Shown: piece by piece, positions 25,605 through 54,701 of the stretch | How the letters are laid out: each line of letters begins with the position of its first letter | Numbering within the stretch: position 1 is the stretch's first letter | The notes under the pieces: generated by a model | Databases searched by the model: none | Told to the model about the DNA's origin: nothing | What the model saw: the letters and a program-made list of their open reading frames with translations, nothing else | Source: Candidatus Tayloriibacteriota bacterium | GTDB taxonomy: Bacteria > Patescibacteriota > Minisyncoccia > Phycocordibacterales > PALSA-1337 | Length of the DNA stretch: 60,442 nucleotides | NCBI GenBank assembly: GCA_903857825.1 | Contig: CAIOGI010000003.1 | Location: 1 to 60,442, forward strand | Direction of reading: 5' to 3' | Program-made: the position numbers and the translations under genes

Positions 25605-26732
25605 ATGATAAGTATATTAGAAGGAACAGCAGACTTGGCTATAATACTTGGTTTTTCTCTATTATCTTGCGTAGTCGCTTTTATTTGGTCACCGATTCTA
25701 ATAAAAATACTATATTATTTTAGAATAATTAAAGGGGCAAAAAGAGAATTGGCGATGATCGATTCTCAAAAAAATAAAGATCAAACTCCAGTCATGGGAG
25801 GACTTTTGATCATAATAACTGTTGCATTGATTACTCTGGTTTTCAATTGGTCAAGAAGTTATACATGGGTTCCAATTAGTGTAATGCTTCTGTCTGCACT
25901 ACTTGGTGCTGTTGATGACTTACTAAACATTTTCGGATCTGAAAGGCGATCTAGAAAACTTACTCAAATCTTCGCATTAATAAGAGTGCATCGTGAATTT
26001 AAAATGAGGATGTGGTACATAATCACATTACCATGGTCGATGTTCAAGAGAACTTCAGTTTGGATTGGTTCTAGAACTAGCAGAGGAATACATGTTCATG
26101 AAAAGCTATTACTTCAATTCGTCGCTGGTTCCATAACTGCATGGTGGATATACGACAAGCTTGGTTCTGCATGGCATTATATTTATTTCCCATTTAGCAT
26201 CGATATTTATGTAGGCTGGATAATCATTCCAATAGTTATTCTTATAGTAATGTTTACTGCAAACGCTGTGAATATAGCTGACGGTATGGATGGACTTGCT
26301 GGAGGCATGCTCATCTCATCTTTTAGTGCTCTTATGCTTTTGAGTTGGATAAATGGTTTCGGCGAAATAGCAATACTGAACGCAACTGTCGTTGGTGCCC
26401 TAGCGACATATACGTATTTCAATATTAAACCAGCCAGATTTATGATGGGAGATGTAGGATCCTTGGGATTGGGTGCCTTGTTCGCGGTAAACACAATAGC
26501 CATTGGCGAGATCGGCTCAATATTTTTCCTAGGCTTCCTTTTCTACATTGAAGCAATAACAGTGTTGATACAGGTACTAGGAAGATATATTCTGAATAGA
26601 AAGATATTTAAAATGGCACCAATACACCATCATTTTGAATTAAAAGGATGGAGTGAAGAAAAGACGATTATGCGTTTTTGGATAATACATTTTGTTTTTG
26701 TAGTCTTTGGTGTGTGGTTGGCTTTGCATTAG
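25605..26732 (+). CDS. mraY: Phospho-N-acetylmuramoyl-pentapeptide transferase
   Basis: NAVNIADGMDGLAGG, MGDVGSLGLGA and APIHHHFELKGW. Confidence 0.9.
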   Translation: MISILEGTADLAIILGFSLLSCVVAFIWSPILIKILYYFRIIKGAKRELAMIDSQKNKDQTPVMGGLLIIITVALITLVFNWSRSYTWVPISVMLLSALLGAVDDLLNIFGSERRSRKLTQIFALIRVHREFKMRMWYIITLPWSMFKRTSVWIGSRTSRGIHVHEKLLLQFVAGSITAWWIYDKLGSAWHYIYFPFSIDIYVGWIIIPIVILIVMFTANAVNIADGMDGLAGGMLISSFSALMLLSWINGFGEIAILNATVVGALATYTYFNIKPARFMMGDVGSLGLGALFAVNTIAIGEIGSIFFLGFLFYIEAITVLIQVLGRYILNRKIFKMAPIHHHFELKGWSEEKTIMRFWIIHFVFVVFGVWLALH

Positions 26733-26733
26733 T

Positions 26734-26869
26734 AAAATTGAGACTCGACGCGGTGAGGAGGTCCTACTTTTTTTGAACTTGTGAAAAAAAGAGGAGCCTC
26801 CGAGCACCACAGGGGTACTAGTAGTTTGCTAAAGCAAACTATGTCGCGCAAGCAAGCGAGTCCAATTTT
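26734..26869 (+). repeat. Type-A nested-hairpin element, copy 2 (inner module in orientation II)
   Basis: The 5' 70 nt are the same as copy 1. The 46-nt module (26804-26849) is the reverse complement of the copy-1 module in its ends, with a different compensated hairpin (TAGTTTGCT/AGCAAACTA). The element starts 1 nt after the mraY TAG. Confidence 0.85.
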
Positions 26870-26884
26870 ACTTAAAACAAACAA

Positions 26885-35310: not shown

Positions 35311-35383
35311 TGCGCCCGGAGGGACTCGAACCCACGGCCAATCGAGTATAAGTCGACCGCTCTACCAACTGAGCTACGGGCGC
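35311..35383 (-). tRNA. tRNA-Ile, anticodon UAU
   Basis: 73-nt cloverleaf. Acceptor GCGCCCG/CGGGCGC, D arm GCTC-AGTTGGTA-GAGC, anticodon arm GTCGA-CTTATAC-TCGAT, variable loop TGGCC, T arm GTGGG-TTCGAGT-CCCTC (one U-U mismatch), discriminator A. No encoded CCA. The body resembles bacterial tRNA-Ile2. Confidence 0.8.
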
Positions 35384-38646: not shown

Positions 38647-39060
38647 GGGGATGAAAGGCCTCGACAGTTGAGGTACTTCATATTGTGCATTGTAGAGCTC
38701 CATTGTCTCTTAAAACCGATGGAAACTCGTAACTGCTAATTCAGCAATTACAAAGGTAAAGGCTGCTGTGTCTCCATATTTTGGATCACACAACTTTACT
38801 TTCGCTCTAGCTACGGCTTAAGCGACGTCTCACATCATGCGTTCTGAATGGTGTTGAGGTGATATAAACATGAACTAGAATTATATTCGCTTCCCTGCTT
38901 ATAATTCGAAACCTTGGGAATCGCCTACATATATTTTGTTTACTTTATAGTATGTAAGTTAAAAGAGTAGGTTGAAAGATCTGCTCGCTAAAGTTTTCTA
39001 TACAATGTAGAAGCAATATAAGATTTCATCTGCACGGCGGTTCGATTCCGCCCATCTCCA
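38647..39060 (+). ncRNA. ssrA: tmRNA
   Basis: The 5' GGGGAUG pairs with the 3' CAUCUCC, including G3-U. T-arm GGUUCGAUUCCGCC. Tag reading frame GCU AAU ... GCU CUA GCU ACG GCU UAA (38735-38821). Located after smpB. Confidence 0.85.
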
Positions 39061-39189
39061 CAATATTGAGACATGTAATATTCCTTGCCTAATATTCTAA
39101 CAAGTTGTAAGCTAAATGTAGCTAGAAAACTAATCCTGTACTAAATTCGCCTGTTGCGAATCTGGTATTGGAGAATAATCGAAAAATCT

Positions 39190-53312: not shown

Positions 53313-53693
53313 TTATTTATTTTTAATAGCTAAATATACAATAATCGAACCAATGACATCATTAAACAAATCCTTGATTGTATCTATGTAGTAAGGTGTA
53401 GTCCAAACCTTTGACCCAGTTAAATTGAAAATCACTTCGAAAGCTTCCCAAGCGAGACCTGCTATGAAGGTGAGTGCTATTATTCTGCTTAGTTTTCCCT
53501 TAATCAATTCAATATTAAAAAACACGGCAACGCTGTATACGGACATAGCTATACCGACACCACCGAGTATGTGCAAAATAATGTCATAAAACCAAAATCT
53601 TATATATAGATCATGTTCCATACCATACAAGTGTAAGACCAACATCGCTGCTAAAATGATAATGGTTGCTATTGAAATTTTTATATTTTGCAT
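53313..53693 (-). CDS. Small integral membrane protein (4 TM)
   Basis: 126-aa hydrophobic ORF. TGGTATAAT (53710-53702) ends 8 nt before its ATG. Confidence 0.45.
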   Translation of the reverse strand: MQNIKISIATIIILAAMLVLHLYGMEHDLYIRFWFYDIILHILGGVGIAMSVYSVAVFFNIELIKGKLSRIIALTFIAGLAWEAFEVIFNLTGSKVWTTPYYIDTIKDLFNDVIGSIIVYLAIKNK

Positions 53694-53736
53694 GTTTAAC
53701 TATTATACCAGAACCAACAAAAAACACCTGTCTTAC

Positions 53737-53871
53737 AAAATTGGATTCGTCGACTTGCACCACAGGGGTACTTCTTGTTTGATAAATCAAACAATGTCGC
53801 GCTCGGAGGCTCCTCTTTTTTTCACAAGTTCAAAAAAGTAGGACCTCCTCACCGTGCCGAATCTCAATTTT
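53737..53871 (-). repeat. Type-A nested-hairpin element, copy 3 (orientation I)
   Basis: Reverse complement of copy 1 with a few substitutions. These include a compensated pair in the outer stem (GATTCG/CGAATC versus GACTCG/CGAGTC). Confidence 0.85.
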
Positions 53872-53892
53872 GTTATACAGATGTACTTTGTC

Positions 53893-54029
53893 GGCTATAA
53901 GAGTATCAAGCCTAGTAAAATTACTAGGTGGGTGATCTCAATGCTAATACCAAGGTACAGCATAATTTGAAGTGCGAAACTTCGTCGATCTCCCAGTTAA
54001 AAAGTTATAGATTTAATACTCTTATAACC
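53893..54029 (-). ncRNA. Candidate structured small RNA (four or more helices), family unknown
   Basis: A 14-bp closing stem (54029-54016 with 53906-53893) encloses GGGAGATC/GATCACCC, GAAGT/ACTTC, TGCT/AGCA and CCTAGTA/TACTAGG helices. G-U pairs exist only on the minus strand. A TATAAT box (54041-54036) ends 6 nt before the first stem base. A type-A element follows 22 nt downstream. Confidence 0.45.
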
Positions 54030-54035
54030 TATTCA

Positions 54036-54041
54036 ATTATA
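54036..54041 (-). promoter_or_regulatory. -10 box (TATAAT) positioned for a transcript starting at the sRNA candidate's closing stem
   Basis: The minus strand reads TATAAT-tgaata-GGTTATAAGAGTAT. There is only a weak TTGTAT -35 box 16 nt upstream. Confidence 0.35.
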
Positions 54042-54083
54042 TTACTATGTCAGACGAATACAATAGCAAAAACACTTCAGACA

Positions 54084-54701
54084 TTATTCTAGAATTCCGT
54101 CCAGATTGACATCGTACAAAATCTTCTCCTGCACATGATTATATTTTATTATCTCATTATTATTAAACCAGTGCTTTATCTCATCATTTGCCTCTTTTAC
54201 TGATCCAGATGCGTGAACTAAGTTTCTTACTGCTCTTCCATCCTCATCGGTCATCTTATATGAATCAAGGACGAAGTCTCCACGAATAGTTCCAACATCT
54301 GACATGAGCGGTTCAGTCCCTCCAGTGATTTTTCTCACAATAGCGACAGCATGCGCCCCTTCCCATATCATAACGATCACTGGCCCGCTCGTCATGTATT
54401 TACAATTATTTGCCAGTATTTTCTTGGTGATATCTAAAGGATTTTCTGATGGTGGGACTAGACCCTTATCATGATAGCCTTTTATAGTTTTCTCACCTGT
54501 TATTCTTCTCCACTCTGGATCTAAAGTGTAATGTTTCTCTATAAGATCAGAAGTAGGCACCATCATTTTCATAGCCACAAGCTTCAAGCCAACACGTTCA
54601 TATCTCCCTATTATTTCGCCCATCAGGCTTCGTTGAATTCCATCTGGTTTTATAATAACTAGGGTTTGCTCGTACTTTGGGTGTGTTGTTTTGTTTTTCA
54701 T
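54084..54701 (-). CDS. ndk: Nucleoside diphosphate kinase (long form)
   Basis: QTLVIIKPDGIQRSLMGEIIGRYERVGLKLVAMKMM and catalytic NLVHASGS. Confidence 0.85.
   Translation of the reverse strand: MKNKTTHPKYEQTLVIIKPDGIQRSLMGEIIGRYERVGLKLVAMKMMVPTSDLIEKHYTLDPEWRRITGEKTIKGYHDKGLVPPSENPLDITKKILANNCKYMTSGPVIVMIWEGAHAVAIVRKITGGTEPLMSDVGTIRGDFVLDSYKMTDEDGRAVRNLVHASGSVKEANDEIKHWFNNNEIIKYNHVQEKILYDVNLDGILE

Follow-up and report, generated by a model that had tools for sequence, protein, structure and literature searches.

Which RNA, if any, is encoded in the 390-nt gap between ndk and the gene of a small membrane protein in this bacterium? The stretch of DNA analyzed here (60,442 nt, in the following called the window) belongs to a genome of 779 kb in 13 contigs, and the DNA runs containing the window sequence are lake-water metagenomes. 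The original prediction, made from the letters of the window, had proposed an unannotated RNA with several helices at this site and had found no riboswitch or sRNA class to match it. We confirmed that a real structured RNA, missed by automatic annotation, lies at 54029-53893 on the minus strand. The lack of a class did not stand, as the element is very probably a diverged 6S RNA (ssrS) of a Parcubacteria/Paceibacteria bacterium near ‘Candidatus Taylorbacteria’. 6S RNA is a widespread global regulator of transcription that is poorly annotated outside the well-studied phyla.

The upstream neighbor of the RNA is ndk (54084-54701, minus strand; Pfam NDK, E 1e-37). Its product is 82-85% identical to the Ndk proteins of ‘Candidatus Taylorbacteria’ and other Parcubacteria MAGs, which are the closest named records. 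Ndk has 205 amino acids, compared with 135 positions in the Pfam NDK model; the match is split in two stretches, and the best-matched stretch covers residues 93-184 only. This pattern points to an insertion or extension shared with the Parcubacteria relatives. On the other side of the gap, on the same strand, follows a membrane ORF of 126 amino acids (53693-53313; 53313-53707 when its -10 box is included) without a Pfam match, and after it a gene for a beta-CASP/RMMBL ribonuclease. A coding explanation for the element was rejected, because the sole ORF over the site is a 54-aa frame on the plus strand, the substitutions are paired and not codon-like, and the indels do not come in threes. In the 60-kb window, a tmRNA (38647-39063, plus strand, 108 bits) and a tRNA (35311-35383, minus strand) exceeded the Rfam gathering threshold, and nothing else did.

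Read on the minus strand, the segment 54029-53893 folds with a minimum free energy (MFE) of -46.0 kcal/mol, compared with a mean of -23.7 kcal/mol for shuffled sequences (z -6.7; none of 200 shuffles was as good). The plus strand of the same segment reaches -40.7 kcal/mol. Based on fold, covariation and model matches, the body of the RNA comprises a closing stem, a central bubble, a terminal domain and a hairpin within the 3′ strand of the bubble. The closing stem P1 (54029-54013 with 53909-53893) lies where it had been predicted, with 17 pairs including G-U instead of the 14 bp originally given. The 5′ strand of the central bubble follows (53996-54012, minus strand, AAUCUAUAACUUUUUAAC), 17 nt long and unpaired in both the MFE and the consensus folds; within it, CUAUAACUUUU is invariant in the genus. 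Helix P2 (GGGAGAUC/GAUCACCC, 53995-53987 with 53937-53929) pairs as GGGA-G-AUC / GAU-C-ACCC. Covariation is seen at the inner pairs (AU/GC/CG/UA), and GGGAG does not vary. In alignments to the Rfam consensus for 6S RNA, the 5′ strand of P2 falls on the GGGag...CCCACCU core.

The terminal domain of this particular RNA is branched. P3 (GAAGU-uucgc-ACUUC, 53983-53979 with 53973-53969) is a clade-specific extra hairpin which creates a three-way junction, next to the terminal hairpin P4 with its C-CUUG-G loop (53963-53955 with 53950-53941). Three of the five P3 pairs show compensatory covariation in an alignment of 17 sequences from the genus. P3 is missing, however, in four genomes of the same genus (G024, G007, G020 and G022) and in about 40 of 53 homologs from the order, so that the core consists of the closing stem, the bubble and the terminal hairpin. 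The three-way junction of the original prediction is thus present in the fold of this RNA and is not a core feature of the family. The last helix, P5 (CCUAGUA-auuu-UACUAGG, 53928-53922 with 53917-53911), was confirmed as the perfect hairpin that had been proposed. It lies in the 3′ bubble strand directly behind an invariant CACCCA, and its CACCCACCU...AGG also occurs in Rfam-validated 6S RNAs of other classes.

Conservation among relatives was examined at two levels. By BLAST, about 20 of 24 genomes of the same genus were found to contain a single copy of the element, with 73-88% identity. In 17 aligned copies from the genus, the -10 box, the unpaired 5′ strand and GGGAG are invariant. This alignment was made and folded with MAFFT and RNAalifold, independently of a covariance model, and supports 47 pairs: 97.3% of the cells are paired and 16 of the 47 pairs show compensatory changes. 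None of 500 shuffles reached the observed values, and structures slid along the alignment were 33-45% paired. A model built from the 17 sequences (R1) and run under strict filters detected the element in 111 of 201 genomes of the order, representing 87 of 155 genera, and always at a single locus. Such a distribution resembles that of a housekeeping gene.

The second level comprised 53 homologs from the order, one per genome. Here, 93.2% of the cells are paired, compensatory changes affect 39 of the 47 pairs, and the covariation score is 0.512 compared with at most 0.075 for slid structures; these sequences were fitted to the model and their alignment is therefore biased towards the structure. 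The support for the structure holds despite this bias, because the margin is very large and the independent MAFFT/RNAalifold result agrees. Compensatory pairs in P1 rise from four in the 17-sequence alignment to 15 of 17 in the 53-sequence alignment. In P4, seven of ten pairs covary in the genus and nine of ten in the order, and the CCUUGG loop is kept in most homologs. P5 is invariant in the genus, and order-wide five of its seven pairs covary (CCUGG/CCAGG, CCUAA/UUAGG). The sequence CACCCACCUAG in the 3′ bubble strand is likewise invariant in the genus and, together with GGGAG, near-invariant in the 53 homologs. The conservation and covariation that the original prediction had named as a check were thus found in relatives.

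Could the element nevertheless be a chance palindrome or a repeat acting at the DNA level, for instance the end of a mobile element, without any function as RNA? The genome is AT-rich and has many structured repeats, one of which adjoins the element, and this would favor such an origin. The compensatory variation is massive, however, there is one copy per genome, and the G-U pairs work on one strand only. The model scores are also asymmetric, with R1 giving 184.7 bits on the minus strand of the window and 37.9 bits on the plus strand. The probability of this explanation is close to nil, and the strand-specific fold of the original prediction is borne out by the free energies, the scores and the G-U pairs alike.

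A common layout can be delineated for the order. It begins with TTGnnn (in most homologs), 16-17 nt, TATAAT, about 7 nt and AGG(G)UUAUUUGGGAUAUUA, which is the 5′ strand of the closing stem. An unpaired stretch of 17-20 nt, GGGAGnnn and a terminal hairpin usually capped by C-CUUG-G follow, and then nnnCACCCACCUAG-loop-CUAGG, the 3′ strand of the closing stem, an A-rich tail and a hairpin with a U-run. Most homologs are about 150 nt long and have a plain closing stem, a bubble and an unbranched terminal hairpin. Judged from this sequence layout, the RNA forms a transcription unit of its own across the order, about 175 nt in length.

The promoter elements were located as follows. The -10 box TATAAT (54036-54041, minus strand) ends 6 nt ahead of G54029, the first paired base, as originally described. 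It is kept as TATAAT, TACAAT or TATACT in essentially all homologs and is invariant or nearly so across the 17 genus-level and 53 order-level sequences. The -35-like element TTGTAT (54058-54063, minus strand) is located 16 nt upstream of the -10 box, and TTGnnn occurs with equal spacing in most homologs. It matches TTGACA at three of six positions and is hence absent from a simple promoter scan. Transcription would start at about A54030/G54029.

The 3′ end is more complex in this genome. A conserved tail, GACAAAGUA, leads into CAUCUGU (53883-53877), the 5′ half of a terminator stem (both at 53877-53892, minus strand). The tail is conserved in the form AAAGAACAUC, and in every homolog the end of the tail is paired as part of a hairpin with a U-run behind it. 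In close relatives, ...AACAUC-UGC-loop-GCAGGUG-UUUUU comes straight after the tail. The 3′ half of the stem in the window, ACAGGUG (53731-53725), and the U-run at 53724-53719 (together 53719-53731, minus strand) were assigned from the fold and from the relatives; together they match GCAGGUGUUUUU of close relatives with an uninterrupted terminator.

Inside the loop of this terminator hairpin lies a dispersed repeat of about 135 nt (53737-53871, minus strand). It starts at 53871, which is 22 nt past the last paired base of the RNA body, and in this position it corresponds to the ‘type-A element’ of the original prediction. The role suggested for it there, that of the terminator, was rejected because relatives show a plain hairpin and U-run at the same place; the repeat was inserted into the loop of the ancestral terminator hairpin. 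It has 23 matches in the 779-kb genome, many of them as separate halves (query 8-80 or 77-122), and two further copies lie within the window at 1913-2062 and 26724-26874. The repeat folds as a long composite hairpin, and the terminator stem and U-run around it are intact. Relatives have an empty site without the repeat, and in their contigs from public runs the equivalent of 53871 is joined directly to GGUGUUUUUUGUUGG, which is found at about 53727 in the window. Because the insertion splits the terminator, the primary transcript may be about 310 nt long here instead of about 175 nt. The A-rich tail (GACAAAG, 53884-53892) can also pair with the U-run (53716-53722); an A-tract/U-tract layout is typical of terminators working in both directions.

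The position of the RNA between the same genes in many genomes raises the question of whether it acts in cis, as a riboswitch-like leader of the membrane-protein and beta-CASP ribonuclease genes or as a structured 3′ UTR of ndk. The succession of ndk, the RNA, the 126-aa ORF where present and the beta-CASP gene, all on one strand, is shared by about 30 of 33 loci from the order, and ndk is located upstream of the RNA on the same strand in 30 of the 33. No terminator separates the ndk stop codon from the RNA, and riboswitches classically consist of an aptamer with a terminator behind it. Among the metatranscriptome contigs from relatives, one spans the ndk 3′ end into the RNA, and another reads through the terminator. 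Two wastewater metatranscriptomes hold copies from relatives, in short assembled contigs without informative ends or strand (X21-X23, X13), and in the metatranscriptome with the organism’s own sequence (X6), ndk alone is covered.

Several points speak against a role in cis. A conserved promoter of its own precedes the RNA, and past the terminator the 126-aa ORF likewise has a TATAAT (53707-53702), 8 nt ahead of the ATG at 53693, which makes the RNA a separate transcription unit. The gene next to the RNA also varies between loci, being either the 126-aa ORF or directly the beta-CASP gene. One genome has the RNA gene in the opposite orientation relative to its usual neighbors ndk, a small membrane ORF and the beta-CASP ribonuclease gene (L032, G123:C8:6245-6434). 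The homologous loci in other classes of Patescibacteria have neither ndk nor beta-CASP neighbors, and searches up to E ≤ 10 gave no match to a riboswitch family. The TPP riboswitch (RF00059), whose resemblance had already been called superficial, was absent at this threshold both in a scan of 601 nt around the site and in a scan of 20 homologs. The likeness is restricted to a short UGAGA..ACCC string; in contrast to the TPP riboswitch, there is no pyrophosphate-sensing helix here, the RNA gene stands alone and ends at a terminator of its own, and a separate promoter serves the gene behind it. On balance, and despite the conserved gene order, we consider a cis-regulatory element very unlikely. 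The mRNA of the 126-aa ORF is probably leaderless, since its TATAAT lies only 8 nt before the ATG and there is no Shine-Dalgarno sequence.

The assignment to 6S RNA was obtained from searches below the usual cut-off. At the gathering threshold, Rfam yielded nothing at the site. A permissive scan of 601 nt across the gap gave RF00013 at 53887-54035 on the minus strand with 18.4 bits (E 0.16; cut-off 46.4), and the remaining matches were snoRNA and miRNA noise. The RF00013 alignment is in register for GGGAG, CACCCACCU, the 5′ bubble and both strands of the closing stem. The Rfam search that had been proposed to challenge the novelty of the element was thus empty at the threshold and led below it to a known family, which in spirit counts against an unknown class.

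We then considered how specific these weak matches are. In whole-genome scans of 41 relatives with RF00013, the sole matches at E ≤ 1 were the loci homologous to the element, with 24.1 bits in G007, 19.5 bits in G020 and 23.1 bits in G026, each the only match genome-wide. The gathering cut-off was reached in none of the 41, and the whole-genome scan of this genome with RF00013 gave no other 6S candidate; searched in the same way, 9-10 of 14 control genomes were also missed by RF00013. Applied to loci of 200 nt from 20 families of the order, RF00013 matched 10 of 20, with 17.5-26.3 bits and always on the strand of the RNA. It was the sole Rfam family recurring over the RNA body in these 20 diverse homologs. 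When the same 20 loci were searched as pieces of 3 kb, the overly large search space prevented any 6S match at E ≤ 1.

A connection to accepted 6S RNAs came from the rest of the phylum. Over 301 genomes, RF00013 found 28 loci, eight of them above the cut-off with up to 73.2 bits; all 28 are in other classes and 145-195 nt long. We used a second model (R2), built from the 53 homologs of the order only, for a local search of the 12 best of these loci, eight of which exceed the Rfam cut-off. R2 matched all 12 at the same place and on the same strand, with 20.9-52.8 bits (E 1e-9 to 0.02). The core common to the R2 family and these loci is UAGGGAGCC...GGCACCCACCUAG...CUAGG. In whole-genome searches of the 301 genomes, R2 gave a single match in 86. 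It coincided with RF00013 at 17 of the 28 loci, including six of the eight above the cut-off, and the two models never pointed to different loci; the remaining two above-cut-off loci had been matched by R2 in the local search. The sub-threshold Rfam matches and the bridge by R2 to Rfam-validated 6S RNAs together identify the element, with high probability, as a diverged member of the 6S family.

Compared with RF00013, the element shares the general organization of a single-copy gene of about 150-180 nt, within the 150-200 nt expected of a 6S RNA, and it is flanked by a dedicated promoter and a terminator, the latter here interrupted by the repeat. Further common traits are the closing stem, the large central bubble and the terminal stem, with the 5′ side of the terminal stem carrying GGGAG and its 3′ side CACCCACCU, both of which the Rfam consensus also has, and the model-to-model bridge to above-cut-off members in the same phylum. 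In line with a 6S RNA, P1, P2 and P4 covary, the 5′ strand of 17-20 nt is unpaired, and the nucleotides GGG...CCCACCU are present. There are also clear differences. Where the family was scored with RF00013, it reached 18-26 bits, below the cut-off of 46.4. Its closing stem is shorter (17 bp), its 3′ bubble strand forms a covarying hairpin of 5-7 bp, and its C-CUUG-G loop is conserved; the first two of these and the strong conservation of the CUUG loop count against a 6S RNA. The three-way junction at P3 is a trait of this subclade and the repeat in the terminator loop one of this genome.

The Rfam-detected 6S RNAs of other Patescibacteria classes (L159-L170) are closer. They share the UAGGGAGCC...GGCACCCACCUAG-loop-CUAGG core, a length of 145-195 nt and a single copy per genome. 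They differ in that ndk and beta-CASP neighbors are lacking and in that their closing stems are longer or richer in G+C, and owing to such stems the Rfam model scores them at 47-73 bits.

These differences bear on the most serious alternative, a small RNA specific to the lineage that has a 6S-like shape and a short motif in common with 6S RNA and serves another function, without acting on RNA polymerase. The Rfam 6S scores under the cut-off would suit such an RNA, as would the conservation of the CUUG loop and P5, which is stronger than expected of a pure promoter mimic. On the other hand, the family model matched 12 of 12 Rfam 6S loci in other classes along a continuous gradient of scores, validated 6S RNAs share the GGGAGCC...GGCACCCACCUAG..CUAGG core and the size of about 150-160 nt, and these genomes have no alternative 6S RNA. 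We therefore judge an sRNA of other function to be improbable and retain the assignment to 6S RNA. A literature search outside the subscription journals brought up no paper on 6S RNA in Patescibacteria/CPR lineages.

If the element is a 6S RNA, its mode of action can be sketched by analogy. Open-promoter mimicry and release by product RNA synthesis are known from E. coli SsrS and B. subtilis 6S-1. The RNA would be transcribed on the minus strand from a dedicated promoter of the sigma-70 type (TTGTAT, 16 nt, TATAAT), with the start near 54030 and the end at the intrinsic terminator that directly follows the short A-rich tail. The RNA would then mimic an open promoter and fill the active-site cleft of the housekeeping sigma holoenzyme, and sequestering the holoenzyme would damp transcription as growth slows. 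Upon nutrient upshift, the polymerase would use the 5′ bubble strand, the predicted template strand, together with the closing stem next to it to make a short product RNA, the synthesis of which would refold the 6S RNA and free the polymerase. Both the binding of RNA polymerase and the templating of product RNA by this RNA are inferred from these well-studied systems. In a simulation of product RNA invasion, with 18 nt of the 5′ closing strand and the bubble forced to be unpaired in 12 homologs, no consistent alternative helix appeared.

A tentative and rather doubtful extension is that the Paceibacteria 6S RNAs constitute a distinct structural subtype, in which the P5-type hairpin and the C-CUUG-G cap are kept for reasons beyond promoter mimicry, perhaps with a transcript of about 310 nt in this genome. 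The non-template strand of the bubble would be permanently folded as a conserved, covarying hairpin, and the C-CUUG-G cap would be invariant. Possible reasons for such a subtype would be another way of docking on, or release from, the reduced RNA polymerase of CPR bacteria, or a second protein partner.

For annotation, the Rfam model calls a 6S RNA in none of the 41 searched genomes of the order and in eight of 301 of the phylum. Under strict filters, 55% of the genomes of the order and 29% of those of the phylum yield a single locus with the alignment and models presented here. Genomes as small as 0.5-1 Mb thus keep a 6S RNA. The finding is no surprise in kind, yet it is useful for annotating CPR genomes, and a seed alignment could extend the coverage of Rfam.

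The terminal domain shows further variation within the order. In about one-fifth of the order-level homologs (L059, L065, L071, L073, L075, L082, L084, L090, L091, L046 and L047), a longer insert replaces the CUUG-capped hairpin, with GAUGAG...CUGA(C) strings that resemble a kink-turn (C/D-like) motif.
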